From a virus: a DNA stretch of 59,347 nt. The stretch is taken from the IMG/VR virus record IMGVR_UViG_3300050154_000158, one strand, 5' to 3'. A program made the translations under genes and the position numbers. Position 1 is the stretch's first letter; each line of letters begins with the position of its first letter. Of this stretch, positions 5,683-28,809 are shown one piece after another. The notes under the pieces are model-generated. The model did no database searches. It worked only from the letters and a program-made list of their open reading frames with translations, and was not told the origin of the DNA.

Positions 5683-6192
5683 TTAAGCGGCTTTCTTTGA
5701 GCCTATCCCGCGAGTAAACGGAACGGTAATTGAGTCACCGATATGCATAGCAGGAAAACACACAAGAGCGGAACCGAAGTTAACGCCTGATTTCTTGGTT
5801 ACGCCATCACGCTCAAGGAAGTTGTAGCGACCGTCAGGCTCATAGATGATACAGCCTTTGCTTACACCTCTACGCCACCAATCAGTCTGGCGTTCATATG
5901 GGAGAAGCATCATTCCTGCGCGACCTTTTGCGCGTTGCTGCTTGGCGTGGTGAATGAATTGCGTTTTCAGGTCGAAGGGTGGATTTAGAAACCAGCTGTC
6001 TGGCCAGTCCAGCGACAAAGCATCATCATCACGAGTGAAAAACAGCTTACATTTAGCCGTGAGCTGTTCCGCTGCTACATCGATGATGAACTTTCTGCCA
6101 AATAGGCGCTCTGCATCAGCAAAACACTCCCACGTTGTAGCCCAGAAATTCTTATCGCTATCGGCAGTTTTTGATTTAACCAGGTGAGCCAT
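5683..6192 (-). CDS. phage Dam-type DNA N6-adenine methyltransferase
   Basis: 169 aa with an NPPF catalytic motif (WFLNPPFD). Size and layout match small phage Dam-family enzymes. Confidence 0.75.
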   Translation of the reverse strand: MAHLVKSKTADSDKNFWATTWECFADAERLFGRKFIIDVAAEQLTAKCKLFFTRDDDALSLDWPDSWFLNPPFDLKTQFIHHAKQQRAKGRAGMMLLPYERQTDWWRRGVSKGCIIYEPDGRYNFLERDGVTKKSGVNFGSALVCFPAMHIGDSITVPFTRGIGSKKAA

Positions 6193-13553: not shown

Positions 13554-14131
13554 TACGAAGCCTTGCGTGGGGGCTCTATACCAAGAAACGCGTGAGATAT
13601 TTCCGCTGCCGCGTAAAACTGTTCTGCTGTGAATTCGAAATCAACGTCAATCTCAGCTTGAGACATGGTTTGCCTAATTGCGTCATTTAAATCAAGAAGC
13701 GCATTTCTTACCTTGTTGAGTCTGTACACAAAGTTTTTCCCAATCAAATCAATGGAGTCATTTTGGGTTTCTAATTCTTTTGATAGCTTTGCGCTATCAA
13801 GCATGCACTTGATTATGTTTATATTTTCGTTATAGATTTTTATACAACTATCAACCACATGCATTAGATCTGGAGTTAAATCGTCAGTTTGCTCTGCATC
13901 TTTAATCTGCAAAACATACCCTCGGATTTTATTTTCTATTAAATCCAAATCTGAGAATGCCTTCATTATTTGAGCTATAACTTCATGAACCTTAAAGACA
14001 GAAACATTGCCAGTCATGTTCAATGATATTGTACTAAATGGCTTCAATAGCTCGACCGCAGATAACTGCGAATCCAGTATCTCATTAATGAGCGCAGGAC
14101 TGCCTTTTGCAACATCAGCACTGAAACCCAT
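13553..14131 (-). CDS. hypothetical helical protein (192 aa), putative partner of the YafO-like toxin
   Basis: Its stop TAA overlaps the toxin ATG (TAATG). ATG with a GAGG RBS. It does not resemble YafN/Phd-type antitoxins. Confidence 0.6.
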   Translation of the reverse strand: MGFSADVAKGSPALINEILDSQLSAVELLKPFSTISLNMTGNVSVFKVHEVIAQIMKAFSDLDLIENKIRGYVLQIKDAEQTDDLTPDLMHVVDSCIKIYNENINIIKCMLDSAKLSKELETQNDSIDLIGKNFVYRLNKVRNALLDLNDAIRQTMSQAEIDVDFEFTAEQFYAAAEISHAFLGIEPPRKAS

Positions 14132-14179
14132 ATACACCTCAACAGAACTTAGTACAACGAAAGTAACTTAATTCTATGT

Positions 14180-14197
14180 GTAAACCATTCGGTTTAC
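14180..14197. promoter_or_regulatory. palindromic operator candidate upstream of the YafO-like operon
   Basis: GTAAACC-attc-GGTTTAC. On the minus strand it is followed by a TAGAAT -10-like hexamer. Confidence 0.4.
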
Positions 14198-14232
14198 CAC
14201 CTTAAACCACGGATCGTGCAAATCAGATCGCC

Positions 14233-14260
14233 ACAAAAAGAAAACCCGCACTTAGCGGGC
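14233..14260 (-). terminator. Rho-independent terminator (minus strand) ending the cI-linked gene block
   Basis: Minus strand: CCCGC-taagt-GCGGG followed by TTTTCTTTTT. Confidence 0.65.
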
Positions 14261-14280
14261 TTGATGTGACATGGGAGATA

Positions 14281-14487
14281 TTATTGTGAAGAGTCTTCGT
14301 AAGCTGACATGACCTTTTCCATGTCATTCCCAACTTTTTCCCAATCCTGCCTGAGGGACCGTGCCGCACTTGTCGATGTTGGGCGATTTTTCATTACAGC
14401 GGAAGACAAGGGACCGCAAAAATTCACTGGCATTAGCTCCAGCATTCTTGCCGCCGCAGATAGATATTGGTTTGCTTTTAACTTCAT
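14281..14487 (-). CDS. hypothetical protein (68 aa)
   Basis: ORF upstream of the terminator. Function unknown. Confidence 0.45.
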   Translation of the reverse strand: MKLKANQYLSAAARMLELMPVNFCGPLSSAVMKNRPTSTSAARSLRQDWEKVGNDMEKVMSAYEDSSQ

Positions 14488-14518
14488 GAGTGGCCAAATA
14501 CCAAGAGCGAGGAAAGAA

Positions 14519-15154
14519 TCATTTCTTCTGCTGATTCATTTCAGTCAGTAGGGTTTTAATGTCGGAAAGTGTTTCAGCTTTTTGCTTTTGAAGCTTTGCG
14601 TCAGTATCAGCATTTGATTTGTCAATCTTATCGTTCAACTGATCAATCTTTCCGCTAAGTTTTGACTCTAGTGTGGAGTTATTTGCTTTTACGACTTCCA
14701 TTGCATTATTGTTAGCCCATAAAGCAATTGGAGCATAAATAGCAACAATACCAACAACCACTGTTAGGGCGGCCCCAAGCATCCACACTTTAAGTGATTT
14801 ATTTTCAACGAGCCGATCTCTTTTGTCTTGATGAAACTCGTCCGCGATTTGTTTGTTTTGCTCTTTCATTTGCTCGGCGATAAGCTCTATTCTGCCGATC
14901 CTTGCGTCAATTTTCGACTCTATAAGCTCTAATCTGGCATCCAGCTCACCGCGAGAAACGTAGTCACTCATTTTTTCTTTCTCTTTTCGTTCACCTTCGC
15001 CTTTAATATAGACTTCATTTGTAGCGCTCACAACAGGGGGCTCCTCTATGCTGCTAGGCTCAACTGCATATTCTGGATATATTGATTGCTGATCATTGCT
15101 TATATTTTTTGCTGAAAAGAAATCAAACACGTTATTGTCAGAGTTATTATTCAT
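14519..15154 (-). CDS. membrane-anchored coiled-coil protein (211 aa; may start at internal MSDY)
   Basis: One clear TM segment (VWMLGAALTVVVGIVAIYAPIALW) flanked by coiled-coil-like charged repeats. Confidence 0.6.
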   Translation of the reverse strand: MNNNSDNNVFDFFSAKNISNDQQSIYPEYAVEPSSIEEPPVVSATNEVYIKGEGERKEKEKMSDYVSRGELDARLELIESKIDARIGRIELIAEQMKEQNKQIADEFHQDKRDRLVENKSLKVWMLGAALTVVVGIVAIYAPIALWANNNAMEVVKANNSTLESKLSGKIDQLNDKIDKSNADTDAKLQKQKAETLSDIKTLLTEMNQQKK

Positions 15155-15164
15155 AATCTATCCG

Positions 15165-15464
15165 TTAAATAACGTTGTGCTCTTTCAATAGACTTCCAAG
15201 GTGAGCGTGAAGATACTTTAGAGTATCAAGATCTGTTCTGGCGACAAATTCCACTCTTGGTTTTGTAGCTTGGGGCTGAAGTTCGCCCACATTTCCTGTT
15301 AATCCTGATATAGAAAATATCGCCATTTCAACAACTTTTCTTTTTGTCCCGCTAACCTCATATAGATTAACCGAAAATCCGTCTGCATTCCCCCGCGGCG
15401 CTCGGTCTAGGTCGTATAGCTCGGCCTTGTTGATTGCGTTCACAAGTTTGTTTTCATTATTCAT
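15165..15464 (-). CDS. hypothetical protein (99 aa)
   Basis: ORF 10 nt upstream of the membrane protein gene. No recognisable motif. Confidence 0.55.
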   Translation of the reverse strand: MNNENKLVNAINKAELYDLDRAPRGNADGFSVNLYEVSGTKRKVVEMAIFSISGLTGNVGELQPQATKPRVEFVARTDLDTLKYLHAHLGSLLKEHNVI

Positions 15465-15506
15465 TTTTTATCTCCGTTTTATAAATTAAAAAGATTTCTA
15501 TTCAGA

Positions 15507-15980
15507 TCATTTTTTATTCAGGGCTGATGTTGGTAACCAGAACTGAGCTTTGGTTTTGTTATCAGAAACCCAGGCTGAAAATTCATCTTTCTTGATATTC
15601 ATGATCGTCACCTTCACCTTATTTCTTCCTGTTGAACAAAGCGCCACTCCTTGATCGAGCGTGTCCACTTGCGCCGCGGTTCTTAAATTGTCAATCATTG
15701 CCTTCGTCTCTCCTTGAAACTCTGGCTCTCCGGTTTCTGGTGAAATGTTTGGCGTTGTACCAGTAAGCTGAATGGTGACCGCCGCTAAGGCAAATGTTTC
15801 ATTTACGTAATTTGATAATTCGCGTGTTGGACAGGCGTAGTACCAGTCTCGCTTGCTTGCAACGGTAATGGCCGTATCTCCAGCCATACAGCCAAGCTTG
15901 TCACATGATTTACTCATGTCCGATGCGGTTGCATTAAGGGCAACTGAAAGCAAGGCGGCTCCAATAGCTAATAGTTTCAT
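15507..15980 (-). CDS. secreted/periplasmic protein (157 aa) with signal peptide
   Basis: N-terminus MKLLAIGAALLSVALNATA, followed by a Cys-containing mature domain. Confidence 0.6.
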   Translation of the reverse strand: MKLLAIGAALLSVALNATASDMSKSCDKLGCMAGDTAITVASKRDWYYACPTRELSNYVNETFALAAVTIQLTGTTPNISPETGEPEFQGETKAMIDNLRTAAQVDTLDQGVALCSTGRNKVKVTIMNIKKDEFSAWVSDNKTKAQFWLPTSALNKK

Positions 15981-16027
15981 TCCGTGATCCCTATGATTAA
16001 TTATGTAAAAGGCCGCTCTATGGCGAC

Positions 16028-16792
16028 CTACAGTTTTTTTGATATCCAGGCTAATTTTACGCGACCAAGAACGCTGAATTTATCTCGTTCGCCATCTTCA
16101 ATAAGGTATGGCTCATATTGTTTATTATCTGAAATCATCAGAATTGAACCATCAGGCCGGCGCTGAAGTCTCTTTATATAAAGCTGATCATTGATGGTTA
16201 GAACATAAACCGCATCGGTAATGACATCCTTGATCCCTGAGTCAACGATCAAAACATCACCATCGTAGAACGTTGGCTGCATACTGTCACCAGAACCAGT
16301 AATCATCGCCAAGTTTGAAGTGTTTGTTATATTTAAATTTCTAGCGACCCAATCTTTTCTAAGAACAATCTCTTCTGCAACAACATCATAATCAGGAACT
16401 ATTGAACCAGGGCCCATTGAGGCAGAAACATCCAACCTTGGAACAGCAACGACTTCTGAATCGACTTTATTTGCCGCCGCCATTGAATTGTTGATTTCAT
16501 GCATAAAGGCAATGTTATCGGTTAATGCCTTATTTATTGCTGGATCAAACGGCATTTGAGTTGGTGCATCAACAAGCAATATCTCGGACTCGCTAACCCC
16601 AAGCGCAGCAGCAATAACAGCTACAGTTGGTCTATCCATGCCATTTCTGCCGGATTCGTAGTTACCAATCCTTGATTGAGACCATCCGCATTTTTCAGCC
16701 AAAAAAGCCTGAGACCAATCCTTAGACTCTCTGATTTCTTTAACTTTTAATCCCATCGCGTACTTAATCGGTCTTTTTTCTGGAGTTTTCAT
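16028..16792 (-). CDS. cI: CI-like repressor: XRE HTH plus LexA/S24 autopeptidase domain
   Basis: HTH (SQAFLAEKCGWSQSRIGNYESG) and C-terminal GSGDSMQPTFYDGDVLIVD...YIKRL (Ser/Lys dyad). Start set at MKTPEKR (alternative 16807). Confidence 0.85.
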   Translation of the reverse strand: MKTPEKRPIKYAMGLKVKEIRESKDWSQAFLAEKCGWSQSRIGNYESGRNGMDRPTVAVIAAALGVSESEILLVDAPTQMPFDPAINKALTDNIAFMHEINNSMAAANKVDSEVVAVPRLDVSASMGPGSIVPDYDVVAEEIVLRKDWVARNLNITNTSNLAMITGSGDSMQPTFYDGDVLIVDSGIKDVITDAVYVLTINDQLYIKRLQRRPDGSILMISDNKQYEPYLIEDGERDKFSVLGRVKLAWISKKL

Positions 16793-16858
16793 CTGACCAC
16801 CAATCATGTTTTTTGGTTTTATACCACATCCTGTGTTAATTAAATTACATGTATCGTG

Positions 16859-16887
16859 TTTACAAACTAACACATATCATGTTTAAT
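16859..16887 (+). promoter_or_regulatory. early-right promoter (pR analog) with overlapping operator
   Basis: TTTACA-N17-TTTAAT. The -10 is embedded in catGTTTAATTAAcgat (16878-16894). An inverted ATGTTTATCT motif lies at 16895-16904, and another TTAATTAA core at 16836-16843. Confidence 0.6.
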
Positions 16888-16916
16888 TAACGATAGATAA
16901 ACATAGGACGTATTAG

Positions 16917-17135
16917 ATGAACAAAATCGCCGAAAAACGAATCTCATTAAATCTATCTCAAGTGAAGTTCGCAGCTCACTGCGGCTGGAGGCAGTCTCGC
17001 TTAACAAACTATGAGCAAGGCAGAACACCATCCCTTCAAGACTGCCGATTAATCGTGTCAGTGCTGAACAAGCTTGGGTGCAAGTGCTCTCTTGATGATG
17101 TATTTCCACCATCAAATCAGCAACGCGCAGCATAA
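16917..17135 (+). CDS. cro: Cro-like HTH regulator (72 aa)
   Basis: XRE-type HTH (LSQVKFAAHCGWRQSRLTNYEQG), divergent from the repressor gene. Confidence 0.75.
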   Translation: MNKIAEKRISLNLSQVKFAAHCGWRQSRLTNYEQGRTPSLQDCRLIVSVLNKLGCKCSLDDVFPPSNQQRAA

Positions 17136-18568: not shown

Positions 18569-18897
18569 GATATGTATCAAGAGAGGCGCAGATATTGGAT
18601 TTTGCGCAAGCATCTGCAAGCGTTATGCATTTAGAAAATATCGTCAAGGTTGTGAGAGATGAATACAGAAGCGCAGTTAGAGCCTATCTACGCGATGTAA
18701 ATGATTTATTGAATTTCAGTCGTAAAGACGTAATTGACGCACTTGATGACCCAGAATTTCAACTGGCTACTGGCAAGTTATACAGAGAGCTATTGGCTGC
18801 AAAAAAAGAACTTAAAAATGCCAAGAAACGCTTACAAACCAGATATCTAAGCCTTCCAGCAGGATTCAAAACTAGCCGCTTGCAGGAGGCTGTATGA
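18565..18897 (+). CDS. hypothetical protein (110 aa)
   Basis: ORF coupled at both ends by 4-nt overlaps. Confidence 0.55.
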   Translation: MRYVSREAQILDFAQASASVMHLENIVKVVRDEYRSAVRAYLRDVNDLLNFSRKDVIDALDDPEFQLATGKLYRELLAAKKELKNAKKRLQTRYLSLPAGFKTSRLQEAV

Positions 18898-19883
18898 ACA
18901 CAGCAGTCAACAACGTTATTCAATTCCGACCCAGCGAGGTCAGTAAAAGTATCGTGAGCAATAAAAAACGGGGTTTTACTCTTGTTTACAAGAGCCTTAA
19001 AGATGCGCCGTTTTATAAAAATCTTGAGCGTAAATCGTTGTGGCTGCACTTGCTGCTTCAGGCTGCCTACGAAGAATGCACGGATTCATTTAACGGCAAT
19101 GTAATCACCTTACAGCGAGGGCAGTTATTAGGGTCTGTGCAGGCATGGGCAAATGATTGCGGTGTCAGCTATGACTCAGCCAGACGCTCCATTGAGTATT
19201 TCGAATCTGAAGGCATGATCACCACTTGCACCAAGAAGGGAAAATCAGGTTTTACCGTTGTCACAATGGTTAATTTTGAGTCTTATCAGGACGCCAAAAA
19301 ACAGGAAAATTCTGCCGATTATAGCGCCAATTATGACGCCAATTATGACGCCGATTATAAACCCGCGCCGCACATGGGTTTGAGCGGTGTTGATGCCGAA
19401 TACAAAACCGAATTAAGCGCCGATTATCACGCCGAAGCTAGTAATAATATAAATAATTTAAAGATTATACAGGGGGCATCAGCTTGCGCTGAAACCCCAA
19501 TCACCGACCACCAAACTGAACAACAAAACCAAGAGCCAGATCTGGAATTTGCATCCACTGAAAAACCAAGAGCGACCAGAACATCAAAATACCAAAAGGT
19601 CGTAGATGCCTATCACCGGATAATTCCTGAAATGGCTCAAGTCACAGACTTGACTGCTGGCCGCAAAGAAAAAATTAAGAATTTCTTCTCGAAATACAAT
19701 TTAACGTTTGAAGACTGGGAAGGGTATTTGACCTACATCAGCCAGAACTGCCGCTGGATGATGGAAAGCCGACCTCGCAACTTCGGCTCTAACGACGAAA
19801 GCCGCTGGAAGAAAAAAAACTTCGATTTCCTGCTGACCGAAAGGTGCTACTTGGGAGTGAGAGAGGGCCGTTATGCTGAATAA
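18894..19883 (+). CDS. replication initiator/organiser (lambda O-like role)
   Basis: N-terminal winged-helix-like region, a central repeat linker that carries the iterons, and position immediately upstream of dnaB with overlap. Confidence 0.6.
   Translation: MNTAVNNVIQFRPSEVSKSIVSNKKRGFTLVYKSLKDAPFYKNLERKSLWLHLLLQAAYEECTDSFNGNVITLQRGQLLGSVQAWANDCGVSYDSARRSIEYFESEGMITTCTKKGKSGFTVVTMVNFESYQDAKKQENSADYSANYDANYDADYKPAPHMGLSGVDAEYKTELSADYHAEASNNINNLKIIQGASACAETPITDHQTEQQNQEPDLEFASTEKPRATRTSKYQKVVDAYHRIIPEMAQVTDLTAGRKEKIKNFFSKYNLTFEDWEGYLTYISQNCRWMMESRPRNFGSNDESRWKKKNFDFLLTERCYLGVREGRYAE
19314..19361. repeat. four tandem 12-bp iteron-like repeats GCC(G/A)ATTAT(A/G)(G/A/C)(C/A) inside the initiator gene
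   Basis: gccgattatagc gccaattatgac gccaattatgac gccgattataaa. A fifth copy (gccgattatcac) lies at 19419-19430, followed by an AT-rich stretch at 19438-19472. Confidence 0.6.
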
Positions 19884-21288
19884 CACACCAGTAAGCATCG
19901 ACTCGGCCGAGTTTGAATATGCCTTGGTTGGTTGCGCGGTTTTTGAATACAACCTCGCCTGCCAGTCAGCGCTGAACATCCTGACCAATGACATGATCCA
20001 GAACCAAGAAAGCCGAACAATCGTGAAGGCTATTCGCAGCCTTGAACAGAACGGCGATCCCGTTGATTTAACAACCGTCAGCGAAGAGTTGGATCGTGTT
20101 GGCGCAAATATTCCATTTCAACGTATCGCCGAACTATGCAAAACACACTTACGCCCGCACAACGCAATGGCGTATGCAATGCGCATTCGCAACGTATGGC
20201 AGCTTAATAGCGCCCTAGTTAAATTGGATGAGCTAAAACACTCAATCACTAGTGAGCGAGATATAAAACGCGCACTGGAGTTATTGCAGGGTATTGGTAA
20301 TGAAATAAAACTGGATTCTGGCATCAGAGAGCCCGTTCGGCTAGATAAGGCCGCCGATGAGTTATTGGCCCACTACATGGGCGTAATGGACGGGCAAATC
20401 ATTTCTGGCGAGCTAACAGGCGTGCAGGGGATTGATGATGCATTTGGTGTTATCAACCCGACTGATCTGGTCGTGCTATCGGCCAGACCAGGGCAGGGGA
20501 AAACGGAGCTTGCTTTGGCGATTCAAACTGAGTTTGCAGTGCGGAAGAATAAACCAACCCTGTTTATCTCGCTGGAAGTAGAAATCAGCCAGTTGGCGCA
20601 GCGCGTCATGACTGCTGAAGCAGGGATCAGCGGGGAGATTGTGTCTAGTTGCCAAGCTTTCGAGGAAGAAGCCTACACAGGGATGCTTGAAAATGCGCTG
20701 GGAAGACTAAAAAACAAGCCAATGTTTTTGCATGAAATGAGCTCACCCACCATGCAGCAAATAGCTGAGGTGTGTCGCCGATTTTGCACGAAACATGCAA
20801 ATGTTGGTCTTATAGCGATTGACTATCTTGGGTTGATAAATCACGGAAAGGCAGACCGAAACGATATATCAATCGGTAATACAACCCGCGCGCTAAAGGG
20901 TCTGGCTATGGAGCTTAAGACGCCAGTATTACTGCTTGTTCAACCAAGTCGTGAGCTGGAAAAGCGAGGTGGAAGACCAAAAATGTCCGATCTGCGCGAC
21001 TCTGGAGCTATCGAGCAGGACGCTGACAAGATTGTATTTATCCACCGAGATTGCACCGTTGATCCGAATACTCCATGGAAGAATATTGCAGAAATTATCA
21101 ATGTTAAGCGAAGACAAGGGCAACCAAAAGACGGCTATCTGGCATTCAATAATGGGCATTTTGTTGAATGCACCAGCGATGAAATGAACAGCGTTATGTT
21201 AATAAAAGGCAATCAAGCATCAAAAGCTAAAGCAGAAAGCGCAGTTGAATTTCAGCCAAAGGGATGGTCAAAAAATGGGGGCAGATAA
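19873..21288 (+). CDS. dnaB: DnaB-family replicative helicase
   Basis: Walker A in ARPGQGKTELALAI, IAIDYLGLI, and MSDLRDSGAIEQDADKIVFIHRD are typical DnaB C-terminal motifs. Confidence 0.85.
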   Translation: MLNNTPVSIDSAEFEYALVGCAVFEYNLACQSALNILTNDMIQNQESRTIVKAIRSLEQNGDPVDLTTVSEELDRVGANIPFQRIAELCKTHLRPHNAMAYAMRIRNVWQLNSALVKLDELKHSITSERDIKRALELLQGIGNEIKLDSGIREPVRLDKAADELLAHYMGVMDGQIISGELTGVQGIDDAFGVINPTDLVVLSARPGQGKTELALAIQTEFAVRKNKPTLFISLEVEISQLAQRVMTAEAGISGEIVSSCQAFEEEAYTGMLENALGRLKNKPMFLHEMSSPTMQQIAEVCRRFCTKHANVGLIAIDYLGLINHGKADRNDISIGNTTRALKGLAMELKTPVLLLVQPSRELEKRGGRPKMSDLRDSGAIEQDADKIVFIHRDCTVDPNTPWKNIAEIINVKRRQGQPKDGYLAFNNGHFVECTSDEMNSVMLIKGNQASKAKAESAVEFQPKGWSKNGGR

Positions 21289-21713: not shown

Positions 21714-22100
21714 ATGAGCAATCACACACCTGAGCCTTGGTATATTGCCAATTACGATGCAACGATGATTTATGGAGAAAAGCTCCCGCCTGAGGTAAGC
21801 AAGTGGATTTGCCAGACAAACACTACAACTTTTTCTGCGAGGAACCTTGCAGGAGAAAACGCCAGACGTATTGTTGCCAGCGTGAATGCCTGTGCACTCT
21901 TTGAGACCAAAGATCTTGAAGATGGGATCATAAATCGAACATTTGGTCAAAACCATACTTTTGATTACGAACGTCAGTTATTTGCCAGTCAGCGCGATGA
22001 GCTAAAGGCAATCATCGAAAAACAAAAGCAATTCGTACTTGAGTCATTTCCAGAAGCTTACGCTGAGTTTTGTCTGATATCGGAAGGCGGTGCCGTATGA
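21714..22100 (+). CDS. hypothetical protein (128 aa)
   Basis: ORF with the N-terminal HTPEPW motif common in small phage early proteins. Confidence 0.55.
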   Translation: MSNHTPEPWYIANYDATMIYGEKLPPEVSKWICQTNTTTFSARNLAGENARRIVASVNACALFETKDLEDGIINRTFGQNHTFDYERQLFASQRDELKAIIEKQKQFVLESFPEAYAEFCLISEGGAV

Positions 22101-22417
22101 CCGCCAGAATCGACATATCTCCAGTTGATGTAGAACGCCTTATTGCTCGGCAAGTAACAGGGAAGATGCTTGCTGTGAAATACCGGTGCAATGCCAAGAC
22201 TATTTGCCGGAAGCTGAAAGACACTGGCGATCAGAGAATTATCGAGGCGCTGAGAAAAAACTCTATTGGTCGTAAATTCAAAAAGAACCAATCCGGATGT
22301 CGCAAGGCCGCTGAAATGGTTCTGATGGGTGAGAAGATAGCGGTTATTGAGCTGGTAACTGGTTGCTCGACACAGACTATTTCAAGACTCAGGAGTGAGT
22401 TGGCGGAGTTGGTGTGA
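22097..22417 (+). CDS. hypothetical protein, possible HTH (106 aa)
   Basis: ATGA coupling with the upstream gene, followed by a terminator. Confidence 0.5.
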   Translation: MTARIDISPVDVERLIARQVTGKMLAVKYRCNAKTICRKLKDTGDQRIIEALRKNSIGRKFKKNQSGCRKAAEMVLMGEKIAVIELVTGCSTQTISRLRSELAELV

Positions 22418-22433
22418 GCCAGAAAAAGCAAAG

Positions 22434-22457
22434 CCCCACCAGGTGGGGTTTATTTTT
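22434..22457 (+). terminator. Rho-independent terminator
   Basis: CCCCAC-cag-GTGGGG followed by TTTATTTTT. Confidence 0.65.
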
Positions 22458-22485
22458 AAAAATAACAACCAAACATTATTTTTTA

Positions 22486-22577
22486 TTGACAGCGTGAGCG
22501 CTCACGTCTAATATTAACACATCAGGTAGCTGATGACGGCGCACCGCGTAACAGGTGCAGGAGATAAAAAATGAATA
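22486..22577 (+). promoter_or_regulatory. promoter-operator-leader unit, copy 1 of a 92-bp direct repeat
   Basis: TTGACA-N17-TAATAT with the palindrome cGTGAGCGCTCACg filling the spacer. Leader hairpins at 22520-22535 and 22541-22558 abut the GGAG RBS. Differs at 2 positions from 25819..25910. Confidence 0.75.
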
Positions 22578-23062
22578 ACTTACAATACTGGTTGGAACAT
22601 GTAGCTGATATGCCAGAGCGTGATAGTCGTGGCTGGTATGATATGGAAAGCGGCCTGCGGTATGATGCATCTGTAAAATACAATCCAGTAAAAACCACAG
22701 TTAATAAACTGAGCGCAAAAGCTCAGGCAGCGCGAGGTACCGCTAAATTCTTTGGTGGTAAAGCGCTGAAAGGCACAGCAAAGCAAAAAGAATGGGCTGA
22801 AAAAATCCGCGCTGAAAAATTATCTAGCATGACGGAAGATCAGGCGGAAATGGTTTGTGACCCTGCCGGAATTCTTACCAACTCAAAATTCTGGATTGAA
22901 AACCGCACAGCATTAGGAAAAGACATTGGTTTGTTCATTGAAGAGCAAAAAGCAGCGTTGAAACAATATCGCGCAGCAGCTGCAAAAGAAGATCGTGAAG
23001 CAATAAAAACACTGGCTGAACGATACAACTCGCTGACTGAGAAATGGGGTTTCGTTGAATGA
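22571..23062 (+). CDS. hypothetical protein (163 aa), first gene of the helicase/MTase operon
   Basis: ORF starts inside the repeated leader unit and is ATGA-coupled to the helicase gene. Confidence 0.6.
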   Translation: MNNLQYWLEHVADMPERDSRGWYDMESGLRYDASVKYNPVKTTVNKLSAKAQAARGTAKFFGGKALKGTAKQKEWAEKIRAEKLSSMTEDQAEMVCDPAGILTNSKFWIENRTALGKDIGLFIEEQKAALKQYRAAAAKEDREAIKTLAERYNSLTEKWGFVE

Positions 23063-24609
23063 AACTTTATGATTATCAGCAAAATATCTTTGACGAAGTC
23101 GTCAGCGCGCCAACCGATGATCTTGTTCAGTTAGATACCGGAGCAGGGAAAACCCCAATAGAAGCTGCACTGTGCAAGCATTATGAAAACGTAATTTTGA
23201 TTGCACACAGAAATATTCTGATAACTCAATGCAGCGAAAAGCTTGCAGCATTCAGTGTTTATCATTCCACACTTAGCTCTGAATATACCCGCCGCCGCTG
23301 TATGTTGTCCCACAAGCGGCATGGGCGGAACTATATCAAGAGAGCGGGCTGCTCCCGCTTCGTTGCCAGCATCGACACGCTTTATTCTCACCATAAGCGC
23401 GGAAATATCACGCTCGACACAAGCAAGGAGTGGTTGATCATCATTGATGAGGCGCATCATGTTATTGCTGATAATAAGTGGGGCGTACTAAAACATATAT
23501 TTCCCTATTCACGCGTTATTGGGTTCACTGCAACACCAAGCCGCATGGATGGTGAGCCGCTAGCGAAAACCAAAGGCGGTATGTTTGATCGTCTTGTTCA
23601 AGCAAAAGGATTGGAAAGCGATAGCATTAAAACTCTGATTACAACCTGCGTACTGAGTGGATTTAAGTTTTATACACCGCCGGTTGGAATAAGTAATAAT
23701 GATAAATCAGTGCTTAATATTTCTGATTCACCGGTAAATACTTACAAAACACTAATGATGGACAAACAGACCATTGTCATGTGTCCGTCAATTAAAAACG
23801 CAGAAGAATTAGCAGATGAATTTAAAGCTGAAAATATCTCTGCGGCATGCATAAGCTCTGCGATGTCTGCAACGGATGTTTCCAGAGTTATTGATTTTTT
23901 CGCAAATGGTAAAATAAAAGTCCTTTGCAATGTGGATATGGTCGGTGAGGGGTTTGATGTTCCGGCTGTTGAGGGGCTTATTCTCGCCAGAAAAACAAAG
24001 TCGTTTACTATGTATCGGCAGTGGATCGGTCGGGCTTTACGCCAAAGCGAAGGCAAGAGTTTCGCTATCATTGCTGATCTGTGTGGAAATTATGAGCACG
24101 GAATTCCAGACGATAACATTATTTGGGATTTGGAATCTCCACCGAAAACTCCAGATTCAATAAAAACATATCCATGCAAAAAATGCGGATTTTGGTATCC
24201 AATCAAGCAAAAAGAGTGTCCGGAGTGTGGTTATGAAAATAAACTATTAATAAGATCATCAGTTGGTGGTCATTATGTAAATATAAACAGATTGGATACC
24301 GGGCTTATTGAAAAAGCACGAAGAGAGCAGGATGCGGAATCTCGCGAAGAAAAATTGAGTAATGAAATAATCATTCCATATTCTGGATTTGATGGCTCTG
24401 GCGTGATTGGGCGAACAGCTGAAAAAATCAGAATTTCATTTGTAAATAAGCTGTATGAGAGTGGAATAAATATCAGAAAGATAAATTATTTTTTAATGAC
24501 AGAGAGAAATATTAATTTTTATATAAATAATTTCAAAGCAAAAGACGCAAAATCACTGTCAGCAGAAAAAGCAAATAAGGTATTTGAAAGATGGCAAAGA
24601 TCAAACTAA
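23059..24609 (+). CDS. SF2 (DEAH-box, ResIII-like) helicase with C-terminal zinc ribbon
   Basis: Motif I LDTGAGKTP, motif II IIIDEAHH, motif III TATP, and motif VI QWIGRALR. Also CKKCG...CPECG. The C-terminal tail is very AT-rich. Confidence 0.8.
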   Translation: MKLYDYQQNIFDEVVSAPTDDLVQLDTGAGKTPIEAALCKHYENVILIAHRNILITQCSEKLAAFSVYHSTLSSEYTRRRCMLSHKRHGRNYIKRAGCSRFVASIDTLYSHHKRGNITLDTSKEWLIIIDEAHHVIADNKWGVLKHIFPYSRVIGFTATPSRMDGEPLAKTKGGMFDRLVQAKGLESDSIKTLITTCVLSGFKFYTPPVGISNNDKSVLNISDSPVNTYKTLMMDKQTIVMCPSIKNAEELADEFKAENISAACISSAMSATDVSRVIDFFANGKIKVLCNVDMVGEGFDVPAVEGLILARKTKSFTMYRQWIGRALRQSEGKSFAIIADLCGNYEHGIPDDNIIWDLESPPKTPDSIKTYPCKKCGFWYPIKQKECPECGYENKLLIRSSVGGHYVNINRLDTGLIEKARREQDAESREEKLSNEIIIPYSGFDGSGVIGRTAEKIRISFVNKLYESGINIRKINYFLMTERNINFYINNFKAKDAKSLSAEKANKVFERWQRSN

Positions 24610-25214
24610 TTTGTGGGGACGCTAAAGTGCAGCGTATATCCTGCGATCTTATTGTTACCGATCCGCCGTTTGATATGCCAGGGGATCAGCTTGCTGAGAT
24701 TATAAAAAAACAGGATTGCGCTCATCTTCTTTTGATAGCGACAATGCGGCAGATCTTGGAGTTTGTTCCGCTAATGAATTGGAAGTTCGGTTTTGACTTC
24801 GTTCTTGATGCCATCACGCCGAAGAAATCAAAAAGTATTCATCAACCGAATTACACGCACCACAGCGGAATTTATCTCCACAAGGACGGCGAAAGGTCAC
24901 TATTCAACAGAAAAAGGCGACAGCGGTCTGATGTATTTGAAGGAAATGGATACTGGCCGACAATCTTTTATGCGCCGAAAGAGCGTGTTCAGCAGCATTC
25001 ACTGGCAAAAAATGCAGATGCAATTACTGACTTGATCGGAAGCTTTGATGTTTCATCTGTTGCAGATCTGTTTGCTGGGAGCGGAACCGTAGGTATGTCT
25101 GCATTTGAGCTTAATTTAGATTGCACGCTTGTGGAGCATGATAAAGAAAACTGCAAGAACATAGCAAATTATTTTAAATTCATGGGCGCTAACTTCAATA
25201 AAGAGGGGTTTTAA
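24591..25214 (+). CDS. small beta-class DNA methyltransferase (probably N6-adenine)
   Basis: The catalytic TDPPFD motif near the N-terminus precedes the AdoMet motif FAGSGTVG near the C-terminus. Overlaps the helicase gene by 19 nt. Confidence 0.75.
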   Translation: MAKIKLICGDAKVQRISCDLIVTDPPFDMPGDQLAEIIKKQDCAHLLLIATMRQILEFVPLMNWKFGFDFVLDAITPKKSKSIHQPNYTHHSGIYLHKDGERSLFNRKRRQRSDVFEGNGYWPTIFYAPKERVQQHSLAKNADAITDLIGSFDVSSVADLFAGSGTVGMSAFELNLDCTLVEHDKENCKNIANYFKFMGANFNKEGF

Positions 25215-25661
25215 ATGTATATACGATATGTTTCTTTAAATGATGGTTATGCGGAAAATTGCGAAAAAGAAGAGGTCGAGCCAATTGATCTCGGTAAAGT
25301 ATTTGAAAATGTTTTAATGCCTATATATTCGGGGAATGTCGGAGTTAAATTTAAGTATGAATATTCTGTTATTGGCGAAATGACAAAGAAAAAAGCAAGA
25401 ATATCACTATTAAAAAATGGAGACGAAATCGCTGTTGTCGCAATCTGCTTGCATAGCCGCCAAGCAAAGAAAACCTGGAATGACTTGATCTCATCTGCAC
25501 AAATTGAATTGCCTGATTTTGGTGATGAGCCGCCGCAGGCTCCATGGTGTGCAATGAGATATGACACTTACGAATCAGGGTTACCTGTGTGGCTTGATTA
25601 CTGGTGCAAATCAGTGGCCTGGTCGATGATAATTCACGCCGAGCACTTTACTGATGAATAA
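25215..25661 (+). CDS. hypothetical protein (148 aa)
   Basis: Starts on the base after the MTase stop. No recognisable motif. Confidence 0.55.
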   Translation: MYIRYVSLNDGYAENCEKEEVEPIDLGKVFENVLMPIYSGNVGVKFKYEYSVIGEMTKKKARISLLKNGDEIAVVAICLHSRQAKKTWNDLISSAQIELPDFGDEPPQAPWCAMRYDTYESGLPVWLDYWCKSVAWSMIIHAEHFTDE

Positions 25662-25830
25662 GCCAATAGCAAAAACTGCAGCACAGCGTAAAGCAGCAGA
25701 AGCAGATCGGAAAAAAGCAATTGGTCTTGTCCGGCGTGGAGTCTGGGCTCACCCTGATGATTGGGGTGAAATAACTAAACTTGTGGAAGAGCTAACAAAA
25801 AAAAGACTAACGAATAGCTTGACAACGTGA
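25654..25830 (+). CDS. hypothetical basic 58-aa protein, candidate regulator
   Basis: MNKPIAKTAAQRKAAEADRKKAIGLVRRGVWAHPDDW... Overlaps the upstream gene by 8 nt. Its last codons run into the -35 and operator of repeat copy 2. Confidence 0.45.
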   Translation: MNKPIAKTAAQRKAAEADRKKAIGLVRRGVWAHPDDWGEITKLVEELTKKRLTNSLTT

Positions 25831-25910
25831 GCGCTCACGTCTAATATTAACACATCAGGTAGCTGATGACGGCGCATCGCGTAACAGGTGCAGGAGATAA
25901 AAAATGAATA
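25819..25910 (+). promoter_or_regulatory. promoter-operator-leader unit, copy 2 of the 92-bp direct repeat
   Basis: TTGACA-N17-TAATAT with the perfect 16-bp palindrome ACGTGAGCGCTCACGT in the spacer. Lies exactly 3,333 bp from copy 1. Confidence 0.75.
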
Positions 25911-26224
25911 CACAGTCATTGTTTAAAATGGATTCAGTATCAGAAATGATCGTTGCTGCTGGTGAACAAGATAGAGATTTCAATCTTGCCTACCCTAACA
26001 AATATGTTGGTTATAGCCTGGAGAGAATGAAATTATTGGTTGCTGAGTACAATGCAAACCGTCTAACTAGTTGCCGTATTGCAAAAGGGTCTCAGGTAGT
26101 TGGATTCTGTACAGTAGAAGATGAAAGCGAGGCTGAAGCAATCATCAACTCAAGAATGGAAGAAGTTACCGCAGTTGCTGAAAAAATTATGCGCTGCATA
26201 GCATTAGGAATGGATTTGGTTTGA
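25904..26224 (+). CDS. hypothetical protein (106 aa) driven by repeat copy 2
   Basis: ORF starts in the repeat (ATGAAT) and is followed by a terminator. Confidence 0.55.
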   Translation: MNTQSLFKMDSVSEMIVAAGEQDRDFNLAYPNKYVGYSLERMKLLVAEYNANRLTSCRIAKGSQVVGFCTVEDESEAEAIINSRMEEVTAVAEKIMRCIALGMDLV

Positions 26225-26255
26225 TAGTGACTTAAAAGGAAGGCTATTCGAAATG

Positions 26256-26277
26256 ACCCGCTTCGGTGGGTTTTTTA
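26256..26277 (+). terminator. Rho-independent terminator
   Basis: ACCCGC-ttcg-GTGGGT (one G-U pair) followed by TTTTTT. Confidence 0.7.
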
Positions 26278-26505
26278 TTGCACATTGACTTTCGCAAAAT
26301 GCAAATAAACCACTGTATATCCGATCACCCAGTGATATACTATTGTCTCGGGGTGGTTCCCGTCTCGCTACACACTGTGCTCGCGCGTGATGCGTCAGTA
26401 CGGATGATTCAAACAATCTGCACTAATTGACGTATCTGAGCATTCAGATATTTGTCATATCCGCTTCACGCCGCTGATTCCCTAACAAGAATCAGGAGAA
26501 CGGCG

Positions 26506-26724
26506 ATGCACAATGGTTTACCTAAAAAATCAGACGCTGAAATTGCAGCAGAAATTCGTTCACTTCCTGACGAAACGGTTCTTGCCATGGCTCAGATTGC
26601 CGCGCCGTTCGTTATCGCAATCAGTGCTGCAATATCGTCAGTTTCTATCCAGCAGCCAGAATTCATTGAAGTATCAGCAGAGCAATTCCTTGCTGTAGCA
26701 CCATGTGTTGGTGGTGTTCAGTAA
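26506..26724 (+). CDS. hypothetical protein (72 aa)
   Basis: ATG with an AGGAG RBS that is partly buried in the CTGATTC/GAATCAG hairpin (26477-26499). Confidence 0.5.
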   Translation: MHNGLPKKSDAEIAAEIRSLPDETVLAMAQIAAPFVIAISAAISSVSIQQPEFIEVSAEQFLAVAPCVGGVQ

Positions 26725-27158
26725 TGGCTGTTACAAGATTTTTCCTTCGTGACGCAGGTGTTGTTCTCAACGCCTGTAAGTTCATATCTGCATTGCTAGT
26801 AAACAGTGAGCGTCCTTGGGTTATCGAAATTAAGGAGATGACTCGCTCGCTCGAGCAGAACGCAAAAATGTGGTGCGTCCTCACTGACATCTCTAAGCAA
26901 GTTAAATGGTATGGCGAATGGCTATCACCAGAAGACTGGAAGCACGTTCTAACCGCCGCGCTCAGAAAACAACGCTCTGTACCTGGTATTGGCGGCGGAT
27001 TTGTTGTGCTCGGCCTGTCCACTTCAAAAATGTCTATCCGCGAAATGAGTGATGTAATTGAGTTGGCTCATGCCTTTGGTGCTGAACATGGCGTGAAGTG
27101 GGGCGTCAAGGCGATGGATGGACTCCGCTGGTCTGAAGAGTGGAGGGATGCCGCATGA
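26724..27158 (+). CDS. ninB: NinB-family recombination protein
   Basis: Strong by-eye match to lambda NinB (RSLEQNAKMW.., WYGEWLSPEDWKHVLTAAL, GFVVLGLSTSKM, AFGAEHGVKW). Confidence 0.85.
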   Translation: MAVTRFFLRDAGVVLNACKFISALLVNSERPWVIEIKEMTRSLEQNAKMWCVLTDISKQVKWYGEWLSPEDWKHVLTAALRKQRSVPGIGGGFVVLGLSTSKMSIREMSDVIELAHAFGAEHGVKWGVKAMDGLRWSEEWRDAA

Positions 27159-27367
27159 CATCATTCAATCTCGCAACCAAGACAACCAGAGAACGCATTG
27201 AGGTTGAGTTAGATAAGGCCGCTTCACTGGCTATCTACAAATTGCGTCACGCCAAAACCATCACCCAGCAAGACATAGCAAAGCAGATCGCTGCATTACC
27301 AGCCGATCAGCAGGGCTACTTCTGTCAGCGATTAAATCATCACGAACTACCGAGGTACAAAGCATGA
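27155..27367 (+). CDS. hypothetical protein (70 aa)
   Basis: ATGA-coupled to ninB. Confidence 0.5.
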   Translation: MTSFNLATKTTRERIEVELDKAASLAIYKLRHAKTITQQDIAKQIAALPADQQGYFCQRLNHHELPRYKA

Positions 27368-27543
27368 GCGCACTTAAATTCTTCATCAACGCATTGGCCG
27401 CTTTTGGTGGTCAGTTTTGGTCAGCACCAATGTTTCGAGCAATTGGGTATCACGGATTTGTTCCACCATCACAGCGCAGCAGATTTTCAGGTGTAGCTCG
27501 AGCCAAGCGCGCAGCCCGCAAAGCACGGAGAAGCCGCAAATGA
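27364..27543 (+). CDS. hypothetical 59-aa protein with basic tail
   Basis: ATGA coupling at both ends. Below the ORF-track cutoff. Confidence 0.4.
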   Translation: MSALKFFINALAAFGGQFWSAPMFRAIGYHGFVPPSQRSRFSGVARAKRAARKARRSRK

Positions 27544-27695
27544 GAAATGCTTACAAAGAGCACCGCGAAGCAGAGCAGGCTGGACGCAGTGAAATAGACG
27601 AACAGTTGATGCAGTGGGCCAAAGACAAAGAAATCGAATTGCCAGATGACATCAAAACGCCTGAGCAGTTTGCAGATCGGGTGATGCGCAAATGA
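27540..27695 (+). CDS. hypothetical 51-aa protein
   Basis: ATGA coupling at both ends. This is the C-terminal part of track ORF 27417..27695. Confidence 0.4.
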   Translation: MRNAYKEHREAEQAGRSEIDEQLMQWAKDKEIELPDDIKTPEQFADRVMRK

Positions 27696-28018
27696 TCAAA
27701 CCAAAAACTAAGGCAGAAAAACTATGGCTTTCAGATGTTGCCAGTCTTGGTTGTGCGGTGTGCAGAAATTCAGGGTTTGGTGAATCTCCGGCAGAAGTTC
27801 ACCACGTTCGCAATGGTGTAGGAAAGGGGCAAAGGGCAAGTCATTTCGACACAATTCCGTTATGCCCAACACATCATAGAACTGGTGGCCATGGTCTTGC
27901 CTTGCATGCTGGAAGGCGAACGTTTGAGCAGAACTATGGCACTGAATTGGCGCTCATGTGGCAAACAAAACGGGAAGTAACCGAAATGCGTAAAAACCGG
28001 ATCGGAGGTGCTGAGTGA
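27692..28018 (+). CDS. HNH-type nuclease (Ref / recombination-enhancement-like)
   Basis: CAVCR...EVHHV...CPTHHRTGGHGLALH fits small HNH proteins found in lambdoid nin regions. Confidence 0.55.
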   Translation: MIKPKTKAEKLWLSDVASLGCAVCRNSGFGESPAEVHHVRNGVGKGQRASHFDTIPLCPTHHRTGGHGLALHAGRRTFEQNYGTELALMWQTKREVTEMRKNRIGGAE

Positions 28019-28371
28019 TAACTATCAATCTCCCATGGCCACCAAGCGTGAACCGCATCTGGCGCCGTGTTGGCAATAAAACAATTCTCAGTGCAGAGGG
28101 GCGTGAGTTTCGGAAAACGGTACAGGGTATTTGCGCTATCAATGGAATATCAGGCAAGAGAATGGCCGGCAGATTATCAGTCTGCATTACTGCAAACCCA
28201 CCAGATCGACGCAAACGAGATATCGATAACCTGCAAAAAGCCCCACTGGACGCATTAACGCATGCAGCTGTGTGGGAAGACGATAGCCAGATAGATGAGT
28301 TGTTAATTCGCCGCGACAGTATTGTTTCTGGCGGATCAATCAAAATTACAATTAACGAGATTTCGGGGTAG
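28015..28371 (+). CDS. rusA: RusA Holliday-junction resolvase
   Basis: LPWPPSVNRIW and DRRKRDIDNLQKAPLDALT match E. coli RusA closely by eye. Confidence 0.85.
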   Translation: MITINLPWPPSVNRIWRRVGNKTILSAEGREFRKTVQGICAINGISGKRMAGRLSVCITANPPDRRKRDIDNLQKAPLDALTHAAVWEDDSQIDELLIRRDSIVSGGSIKITINEISG

Positions 28372-28374
28372 GCA

Positions 28375-28809
28375 ATGTCTGATTACGTTGAAGTGGCAGG
28401 ACAAAACAAATACCAAGACACCATGAGTACGGTTAGTGATATCGCAGAGGCCGCTAGATATTCAGGTATCAGAGAGATTCTAATTCGCTGGGGTAATTGG
28501 GCAAGAGAGCAACCACACACAGGATACCCGATTAAATCAGCCGGAATGGGGCAAAATCCAACCGCTGGTAAATGTGAATTGTGCAGCGATGAAGAGGGGC
28601 TGATTGTCGATAAGGCTGTATTGGCTCTGAATGTTGTCGATGAAGAATATTACAAGGTGATCTTCGCTCGGTACGTTATTAACTGCACCAACAAAGAGGG
28701 CGCTGATTACATGGGGATCCCCGTTCGCCGGTATTACGAGAACCTAGCATCAGCTGAGAAGTCACTATCAGTAGCGTTGCTGTCTATAACATCAATTTTT
28801 GAAGCATAA
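28375..28809 (+). CDS. Q-like late-gene antiterminator
   Basis: ILIRWGNWARE...C.LCSDEEG...YYKVIFARYV pattern resembles phage 21/82-type Q. It sits directly upstream of a strong promoter followed by a terminator. Confidence 0.7.
   Translation: MSDYVEVAGQNKYQDTMSTVSDIAEAARYSGIREILIRWGNWAREQPHTGYPIKSAGMGQNPTAGKCELCSDEEGLIVDKAVLALNVVDEEYYKVIFARYVINCTNKEGADYMGIPVRRYYENLASAEKSLSVALLSITSIFEA

Follow-up and report, generated by a model that had tools for sequence, protein, structure and literature searches.

A predicted self-repressed acr-aca-type anti-defence unit combining an AcrIF23 homologue, a helicase and a compact methyltransferase in a temperate lambdoid-type phage

We analysed a five-gene cassette and its flanks in IMG/VR virus record IMGVR_UViG_3300050154_000158, a DNA stretch of 59,347 nucleotides referred to here as the window. 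The gene content of the window (integrase, CI-like repressor, O-like and DnaB replication proteins, NinB, RusA, Q, TerL and tail sheath) points to a temperate lambdoid-type myovirus, and all members of the phage's cluster are metagenomic, the longest contig measuring 59,463 nt. The cassette lies between O/DnaB (18894-21288) and NinB/RusA/Q (26703-28809). It comprises five co-directional open reading frames (ORFs) on the + strand, which encode products of 163, 516, 207, 148 and 58 amino acids (aa) and overlap at their successive junctions by 4, 19, 0 and 8 nt. An earlier sequence-only reading of this DNA had proposed a five-gene operon, whose ORFs and overlaps were verified at the same coordinates. 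The features of the locus are as follows.

22431..22451, + strand: intrinsic-terminator-like hairpin and T-run (9-bp stem with 5 GC pairs, ATTTTTAAAA tail)
22486..22577, + strand: repeat copy 1, with promoter P1, a palindrome, a hairpin in the 5′ untranslated region (5′UTR), the Shine-Dalgarno (SD) sequence AGGAGA and the start ATGAATA
22571..23062, + strand: AcrIF23-family protein of 163 aa, predicted inhibitor of the Cas2/3 helicase-nuclease (PDB 7FIA match, AlphaFold2 (AF2) model and Foldseek)
23059..24609, + strand: superfamily 2 (SF2) DEAH helicase of 516 aa, RadD-like, with a RecA1/RecA2 core, a Cys4 zinc ribbon (373-390) and a C-terminal domain encoded by AT-rich DNA (profile searches, alignment)
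24591..25214, + strand: compact beta-class N6A/N4C DNA methyltransferase of 207 aa, DPPF ... FAGSGT (PF01555, motifs)
25215..25661, + strand: accessory protein of 148 aa (homologues after the methylase in contigs L038 and L062)
25654..25830, + strand: basic protein of 58 aa, candidate autorepressor with an Aca-like role (sub-cut-off UrfF match; operons of contigs L056 and L059)
25819..25910, + strand: repeat copy 2, with promoter P2, a 16-bp perfect palindrome and the same 5′UTR, SD and start
25904..26224, + strand: gene of 106 aa (ORF downstream of P2)
26255..26272, + strand: terminator-like hairpin and T-run closing the unit (from the sequence)

The cassette is flanked by a 92-nt direct repeat (22486-22577 and 25819-25910, 98% identical) that holds promoter, operator and 5′UTR and occurs exactly twice in the window, against 0.00 copies expected by chance. 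P1, in copy 1, is a near-consensus sigma-70 promoter that matches 10 of 12 consensus positions, with a -35 element TTGACA (22486-22491), a 17-nt spacer and a -10 element TAATAT (22509-22514). A perfect 14-bp palindrome, CGTGAGCGCTCACG (22493-22506), occupies the P1 spacer, in line with the operator control that the earlier reading had claimed. The 5′UTR hairpin of this copy, CATCAGGTAGCTGATG, lies at 22520-22535; the fold z-score of the 5′UTR is just -1.8. The -35 and -10 elements of P2 lie at 25819-25824 and 25842-25847, and copy 2 carries a perfect 16-bp palindrome, ACGTGAGCGCTCACGT (25825-25840). This copy reaches into the 3′ end of the 58-aa gene and so places the TGA stop of that gene inside the second operator. 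The inverted repeat in the core promoter that characterizes anti-CRISPR (acr)-anti-CRISPR-associated (aca) operons is present here as a perfect palindrome of 14 or 16 bp and is conserved in relatives.

The 106-aa gene (25904-26224) is apparently the sole gene transcribed from P2 and would hence belong to the same regulon. The terminator-like hairpin at 22431-22451 is predicted to shield the unit from transcription of the upstream replication region. Because this hairpin and that at 26255-26272 bracket the repeat-driven genes, the unit appears to be insulated on both sides and organized as two transcription units under one operator. Neither the bracketing hairpins, nor the second promoter copy with its gene at 25904-26224, nor the identity of the first gene as an AcrIF23 homologue had been part of the sequence-only reading.

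Diverged relatives support the conservation of this arrangement. Two contigs, L013 (3339 nt) and L016 (3323 nt), consist of the same five genes as stand-alone sequences, compared with a repeat spacing of 3333 nt in the window, which fits assembly breaks at flanking repeats. The operator core GTGAGCGCTCAC recurs at the tail of L013 and at the end of L017, a shorter contig of the L016 lineage, and the half-site GCTCAC stands at the head of L016. These occurrences at contig ends indicate that operator and flanking repeat alike have been kept; the promoters around them have otherwise diverged from those of the window. Recombination between the 92-nt repeats could, in principle, add, remove or precisely excise the cassette. 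The operator core coincides exactly with the middle 12 bp of AATTGTGAGCGCTCACAATT, the symmetric lac operator made artificially, and a host LacI-type repressor might for this reason bind P1 and P2. Separately, a 41-nt stretch in the AT-rich 3′ part of the helicase gene (24467-24507) is 76% identical to 22457-22497, which runs from upstream into P1 (TTATTTTTTA[TA]TGACAG...), and may be a promoter remnant or a chance likeness of AT-rich sequences.

Base composition sets the cassette apart only slightly. Its GC content is 41.1% compared with 45.8% for the window (lowest 3.7% of equal-sized windows), and the 3′ third of the helicase gene (24240-24560) falls to 31.5% (lowest 0.07%). A second region at ~13.6-17 kb (13600-17000), the immunity region around the CI-like repressor, is similarly GC-poor (about 40%). 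The AT-rich island described in the earlier reading is accordingly real but modest, given the small dip and the equally GC-poor second region. Megablast searches of INPHARED phages, PLSDB plasmids and complete E. coli genomes returned no match to the cassette and nearly none to the rest of the window, and an Rfam scan of 22000-26500 was likewise negative.

The 163-aa product, previously listed as an unknown, is a homologue of the anti-CRISPR protein AcrIF23. A phmmer search aligned it over its full length with AcrIF23 in PDB 7FIA (residues 1-161 on 3-161, E 5.1e-46, 48-50% identity). Its AF2 model, built from 43 homologues with a predicted local distance difference test (pLDDT) score of 93, places helices and a hairpin at positions matching those of AcrIF23 (seven helices and a long loop with a beta-hairpin). 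Foldseek comparison of this model with the PDB gave 7FIA as the sole match below 1e-3 (E 4e-12, 48% identity), and a fold search of BFVD gave no match. The family comprises 170 homologues and lacks a Pfam domain. AcrIF23 was discovered in Pseudomonas aeruginosa through its homology to a Desulfovibrio carbinolicus protein encoded next to aca9 (PMC7648647); that D. carbinolicus protein corresponds to our homologue P0138 and shares 57% identity with the window protein.

The dissociation constant (KD) of AcrIF23 for the Cas2/3 helicase-nuclease is 1-3 µM; the protein blocks cleavage but not recruitment and raises DNA binding by Cas2/3, and its loop residues 17-28 are needed for inhibition (PMC9270243). 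Loop residues L24/E25/T26/I28 correspond to M/E/S/L in the window protein, a conservative pattern, whereas Q17/N18/Q20 have been lost. On this homology, we predict that the 163-aa protein is an anti-CRISPR inhibitor of the Cas2/3 helicase-nuclease.

In the 516-aa product, Pfam recognizes ResIII (9.8e-23) and Helicase_C (1e-15), and PHROGs gives phrog_16, 'DNA helicase' (1.2e-67). Across 36 homologues, motifs I, II (DEAH), III and VI are invariant (G28/G30/K31/T32, D130/E131/H133/H134, T157/T159 and Q321/G324/R325/R328), as are the four cysteines of the zinc ribbon (C373/C376/C387/C390), in full agreement with the DEAH-box ResIII-like helicase with a zinc ribbon recognized earlier. The best NCBIfam hit is RadD, but at 89.6 bits against a cut-off of 720 the protein is not a RadD equivalog; RadD in PDB 6jde matches at 2.5e-14 over residues 236-378 only. 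Many full-length relatives share 40-57% identity. In tblastn searches, PLSDB contained no orthologue and cultured phages only relatives of ~30% identity, and a helicase-based scan of GTDB genomes yielded one distant match.

The 207-aa product exceeds the cut-off of PF01555 (N6_N4_Mtase; 31 bits versus 26.7). Its DPPF motif IV (residues 24-27) precedes its FAGSGT motif I (161-166), an order that places it in the beta class as the sequence-only reading had proposed, and both motifs are conserved in 13 orthologues. The enzyme is unusually compact. The 19-nt overlap couples its start to the stop of the helicase gene, and in orthologous loci with called genes the two codons likewise overlap or abut. 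The phage's separate Dam-type methyltransferase at 5683-6192, also noted before, matches phrog_111, DNA methyltransferase (2e-43). A single motif break was seen among the 13 orthologues: the Photorhabdus methylase of L007 (9548-10177) has DPQF for DPPF/Y, which suggests an inactive enzyme in a decaying prophage.

The module lacks a detectable nuclease. Pfam, NCBIfam, PHROGs and PADLOC revealed no nuclease family in the five products, in line with the earlier reading, and none was found in the extra genes that relatives carry between AcrIF23-like gene and helicase. The last 120 aa of the helicase hold no invariant acidic/lysine set, with only N476 and F492 invariant in the 36 homologues. A hidden nuclease fold had been suggested as a target for profile and structure searches in the 163-aa and 148-aa proteins; the former has the all-alpha, non-enzymatic AcrIF23 fold, while the latter has no match to a nuclease family but, its AF2 model being too poor for use (pLDDT 48), may still hide a cryptic fold.

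These results bear on whether the helicase and methylase form a restriction-modification (R-M) system. The helicase homologue P0048 lies on NZ_JBHSGG010000036.1, our contig L062 from Coralloluteibacterium. In Fig. 3E of a 2026 Nucleic Acids Research paper (PMC13551039), JBHSGG010000036.1 c331..4231 is drawn as "RM embedded in an acr-aca operon". That interval spans exactly an AcrIF23-like gene (173 aa), a 104-aa gene, a helicase (562 aa), a methylase (207 aa), a 150-aa gene and a 71-aa helix-turn-helix (HTH)-like gene. Identity to the window is 43% for the AcrIF23-like protein, 43% for the helicase, 53% for the methylase and 34% for the 148-aa homologue, in the same order. Since c331..4231 covers the L062 module, the module is already in print, its pair named in the figure legend as restriction endonuclease (REase) and methyltransferase (MTase); we infer that this 'REase' is a ResIII helicase with no detectable nuclease domain.

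A prophage-borne defence, in which helicase and methylase act as a type III-like, ISP-like or BREX-like R-M system that excludes other phages from within an acr-aca operon, would be consistent with that published legend and with several features of the sequence. The helicase domain bears the Pfam name 'Type III restriction enzyme, res subunit', PbeA and REases of types IV and I rank highest among its PADLOC matches, a cognate methyltransferase with invariant motifs IV and I is present (PF01555), and temperate phages commonly carry defence morons. However, the PADLOC and PDB matches of the helicase to restriction enzymes (PbeA, type IV and type I REases, 7clg) cover motor domains only, and its C-terminal domain has no invariant catalytic-type residues. 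The partial PADLOC hits (PbeA at 7e-25 over residues 236-341, mad2 at 2.4e-5) reflect motor or S-adenosylmethionine (SAM) domains. No system-specific match emerged from the PADLOC component sets (DISARM, BREX, MADS, Dpd, Pbe and others), in which the other three proteins had no hits. The absence of a nuclease domain from the five proteins and from the inserted genes of relatives, the non-enzymatic AcrIF23 fold and the counter-defence setting of the module on a plasmid-like contig, where ArdA and orphan methylases are its neighbours, also speak against restriction. We regard R-M defence as quite improbable, and the compact defence or type III R-M-like option raised in the sequence-only reading is unsupported, the only PADLOC hits being generic for helicase and MTase.

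Orthologous loci anchored on the helicase (at least 40% identity), in every case fetched, carry an AcrIF23-like gene upstream and a methylase downstream that is 49-64% identical to that of the window, with stop and start codons usually overlapping or abutting. They occur in a Photorhabdus prophage remnant (L007), where the upstream AcrIF23-like match is weak and partial (38% over 123 aa); a Pectobacterium carotovorum plasmid-like contig (L008/L009); a Brenneria alni conjugative element between TraC and TraU/TraG (L010); an integrase-bearing element (L011); an Azorhizophilus prophage beside KorA (L012), with a partial AcrIF23-like match (42% over 64 aa); and Coralloluteibacterium (L062). The Pectobacterium contig has ParA, StbA/ParM, UmuDC and Hha upstream of the module, and a second orphan methylase, DUF1380, ArdA and an N6_Mtase downstream. 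The conserved core is thus AcrIF23-like gene, helicase and methylase, with four genes in some elements. Of the single five-gene functional unit proposed earlier, this core holds, but the 58-aa gene is exchangeable: HTH proteins occur elsewhere downstream of the methylase, at or near the operon end (74 aa in L008 and 64 aa in L011 by Pfam). The 71-aa regulator of L062 is HTH-like as judged by eye from its 'MGLSQRAAAEALGMS' motif. Elements with HTH regulators carry different promoter palindromes, and this combination of HTH proteins at or near the operon end with palindromes at promoters identifies an acr-aca layout.

Some further observations concern these elements. Upstream of the L008 module, a 38-nt near-perfect palindrome with 17-bp arms (6995-7032, CAATTGACTATACGCAC..., containing TTGACT) could be an operator or a single-strand promoter-like hairpin. 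A 107-aa ORF stands at or shortly after the methylase in L007 (10192-10515), L008 (10397-10720, following the 74-aa HTH gene) and L010 (10403-10726), the three being identical in length. The 5′UTR before the AcrIF23-like gene is nearly the same in L062 (4085-4185, AACAGGGGCAGGAGA) and in the window (22545-22575, AACAGGTGCAGGAGA), although their promoters and operators differ and L062 is from Coralloluteibacterium, while the closest named relatives of the phage are Enterobacterales.

This distribution also addresses the possibility that the genes are ordinary replication or recombination accessories of a nin-like region, namely a RadD-type repair helicase and a regulatory methylase. Such a role would suit the position of the unit between O/DnaB and NinB/RusA/Q, the RadD hit and the presence of ~30% identical helicases in the replication modules of cultured phages. 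Those distant helicases, however, have neither an AcrIF23-like nor a methylase partner, and the orthologous trio resides in plasmid-like, integrative and conjugative element (ICE) and prophage contexts unrelated to replication modules. With a first gene from an anti-CRISPR family and a promoter, operator and terminators of its own, the unit is very improbable as a set of replication accessories.

In a closer rival reading, the products of the trio, joined in some elements by the 148-aa protein, would assemble into one physical machine. Its helicase-binding or loading subunit would be the AcrIF23-like protein, its task the ATP-dependent methylation or remodelling of incoming DNA, and stand-alone AcrIF23 would be an offshoot retargeted to Cas2/3. 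The AcrIF23-like gene is present in all helicase-anchored loci, and its stop-start overlaps with the helicase recur in distant taxa. The weak binding of AcrIF23 to an SF2 helicase-nuclease, together with its stimulation of DNA binding, resembles the behaviour of a cofactor, and precedents exist in MANTIS and in M.EcoGIX and M.BceJIII, which act on single strands and need a partner. Nevertheless, among AcrIF23-family loci from IMG/VR and metagenomes with enough downstream sequence, only about half carry the helicase, plus the methylase where the contig reaches; those without either include P. aeruginosa acrIF23-acrIF24, D. carbinolicus and several plasmids. Another gene separates the AcrIF23-like gene from the helicase in L024, L036, L038 and L062, and no natural fusion was seen. 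We consider a single machine unlikely.

A word-indexed search found only 3 close homologues of the 148-aa protein, and homologues of 32-34% identity directly follow the methylase in L038 and L062. A distant relative (hidden Markov model E 3e-8) is encoded in L031 (4842-6346; also in L032), a GC-rich viral contig lacking helicase and methylase, ~430 nt downstream of an AcrIF23-like gene. The 148-aa and AcrIF23 families are therefore linked in more than one architecture. A catalytic role for the 'CLHSR' motif of the 148-aa protein is argued against by its loss in the L031 relative, and a PDB profile search with this protein gave no match. The 106-aa product matched nothing in Pfam, PHROGs or the PDB; its gene is a candidate for a further anti-defence gene of the same regulon.

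The 58-aa protein is the most likely candidate for an operator-binding autorepressor of the unit. The best support comes from two unrelated IMG/VR contigs, in each of which an operon of small proteins lacking Pfam matches ends with the gene of a homologue (L056, 54% identity over the aligned segment; L059, 47%). The promoter spacer of both operons holds GTGACCGGTCAC, as in the TTGTAT-TGTGACCGGTCACGAA-TATAAT arrangement of L059, and these palindromes share position and GTGA-N4-TCAC half-sites with the window operator. The family comprises 70 representatives of about 50-65 aa with the consensus KTxAxRKAxERxRxRxxGLVxRxVWxHPDDWPxI. The window protein matches NCBIfam UrfF, 'plasmid repression protein F', at 4.6e-6. 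Among 45 scanned family members, UrfF was matched by 18 and BacA by 12, all below curated cut-offs, and the protein appears to belong to a small-repressor-like family. Within the AcrIF23-helicase-methylase module, the 58-aa gene is limited to the lineage of the window. A PDB search with the 58-aa protein gave no meaningful match. The literature on 'UrfF' and 'plasmid repression protein' was uninformative, and the BacA paper contained no DNA-binding data under the terms searched.

Taken together, we interpret the region as an insulated, self-repressed acr-aca-type anti-defence unit of a temperate lambdoid myovirus, a reading that we hold to be probable with some reserve. Upon entry or induction, the near-consensus P1 would fire and a burst of expression would follow from P1 and P2. 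The AcrIF23-like protein would then bind the host Cas3-type helicase-nuclease and block DNA cleavage, while the translationally coupled helicase and compact methyltransferase would act jointly on the element's own DNA and blunt restriction, most likely by unwinding or translocating DNA at the expense of ATP so as to feed or load a methylase of low specificity. The 148-aa protein may be an accessory or further anti-defence factor. As the 58-aa protein accumulates, it would bind the spacer palindromes of P1 and P2 and shut off the operon and the 106-aa gene.

Cooperation between helicase and methylase is favoured by four lines of evidence: the overlapping or abutting stop and start codons in orthologous loci with called genes, the unusual compactness of the methylase, the action of M.EcoGIX-like compact methylases on single strands with a partner enzyme (PMC7736820), and the MANTIS precedent for ATPase-dependent loading of a methylase. 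As for the self-protection or anti-restriction module suggested by the sequence-only reading, the membership of gene 1 in a validated anti-CRISPR family and the occurrence of the trio beside ArdA and orphan methylases and within conjugative and prophage elements lend it support, the helicase-methylase pair having a putative part in that role.

Several observations weigh against our interpretation. The gene structure, the repeat and operator, the AcrIF23 homology and fold, the helicase and methylase motifs, the lack of a detectable nuclease, the synteny and the association of the 58-aa family with GTGA-N4-TCAC are computed results; by contrast, we infer the biochemical activities of all five products, the cooperation of helicase and methylase, the protection of the phage by methylation, the timing of expression and the identity of the operator binder. 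The first protein is only ~50% identical to AcrIF23, and three of seven functionally tested loop residues (Q17, N18 and Q20) are not kept in it. The Acr does not need the helicase, as judged from the roughly one half of AcrIF23-family loci that lack it, and the authors of PMC13551039 label the same helicase-methylase pair, in the figure concerned, an R-M system.

With respect to the repressor, the UrfF match of the 58-aa protein is far under the curated cut-off (26.6 versus 100 bits), and no recognised DNA-binding domain was detected in it (no Pfam HTH or ribbon-helix-helix (RHH) domain, nothing even at E<=10). An hhalign comparison did not support membership in Aca14 (probability 0.3%), and the protein was not placed in any named Aca family, Aca1-13 not having been compared individually. 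Another regulator could bind the operator instead, for example the 115-aa protein encoded immediately before the unit (22070-22417), which has two HTH-like segments (HTH_29, weak, E 0.059).

A bolder and rather doubtful proposal is that the main role of AcrIF23-fold proteins is to serve as partners in a helicase-methyltransferase machine, widespread on mobile elements and free of nuclease, that methylates or clears the element's own DNA on entry by means of ATP-driven unwinding or translocation, the known free-standing AcrIF23 having been exapted to Cas2/3 through its helicase-binding surface, and that, separately, the 58-aa UrfF/BacA-like proteins are new non-HTH Aca-type repressors recognising GTGA-N4-TCAC. 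If our anti-defence interpretation is right, a module drawn as R-M inside an anti-CRISPR operon would be a counter-defence device lacking a detectable nuclease, and its annotation by defence and anti-defence finders would change. The coupling of the AcrIF23 fold to an SF2 helicase across phyla would offer a testable account of the weak Cas2/3 binding and the DNA-binding stimulation of AcrIF23. A helicase-dependent methylase would represent a new fast route to double-stranded DNA modification for phages and plasmids, a counterpart of the single-strand methylases in plasmid leading regions that depend on Pol I. Likewise, the 58-aa family and its operator would be a compact addition to the Aca repertoire and a marker for new anti-defence genes, such as those of the 148-aa and 106-aa products.

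Type III Res subunits carry a C-terminal PD-(D/E)XK nuclease, and the corresponding Mod subunits are much larger and have a target-recognition domain. The window resembles type III R-M (Mod + Res) in setting a ResIII-type motor beside an adenine/cytosine-N methylase, but it contains neither a PD-(D/E)XK nuclease nor a large Mod with a target-recognition domain. DarB and the polyvalent proteins are carried by phages and conjugative elements and linked to anti-restriction, DarB being very large and virion-packaged. P1 DarB and the MTase-helicase 'polyvalent proteins' (mentioned in PMC11541004 and PMC13551039) combine, like the window, an MTase with an SF2 helicase and lack a nuclease. DarB is one very large protein, whereas the window has two separate genes (516 and 207 aa) behind an early-type promoter, and the likeness to DarB is one of description only.

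M.EcoGIX and M.BceJIII are compact plasmid methylases that act on single strands and require a partner enzyme (PMC7736820). They share with the window methylase a size of about 210-230 aa, the beta class and a location on mobile elements, and they protect entering DNA; their partner is Pol I, while that of the window enzyme would be the helicase. A probable relative lies 1.1 kb downstream in L008, and the window methylase is only 23% identical to it. MANTIS/Gao_RL was rejected as the identity of the module owing to its different four-protein composition.

AcrIF23 from a P. aeruginosa prophage (PDB 7FIA; PMC7648647, PMC9270243) and the window protein have the same all-alpha fold and similar lengths (159 versus 163 aa), and both carry the W-x-D-[LM]-E-[TS]-G loop, to which a part in Cas2/3 binding is ascribed. 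In P. aeruginosa, AcrIF23 is followed by AcrIF24, with no helicase and methylase, whereas in the window helicase and methylase come next. As shown in PMC13551039, inverted repeats common to two operons let Aca14 repress both the one that encodes it and the one that follows. Like the Aca14 (RHH)-type acr operons, the unit in the window has a strong promoter with an inverted repeat in its core, ends with the gene of a small regulator and carries the same repeat again at the next promoter. The Aca14 operator, however, is AT-rich and lies over the -10 element, while that of the window is GC-rich and lies in the spacer, and the 58-aa protein is not demonstrably Aca14 and has no HTH.

Aca-regulated anti-defence operons are already known; what is new here is a helicase-methylase core with no detectable nuclease, in our view mislabelled as R-M, the unrecognised small-repressor family and the cassette-bracketing repeat. 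The closest counterpart is the 'acr-RM-aca' operon with a distant AcrIF23 homologue drawn in PMC13551039, which is the same module as that of the window and likewise ends in a small regulator. L062 has an extra 104-aa gene and a 71-aa HTH-like regulator, whereas the window has a 58-aa non-HTH protein and a duplicated promoter/operator.

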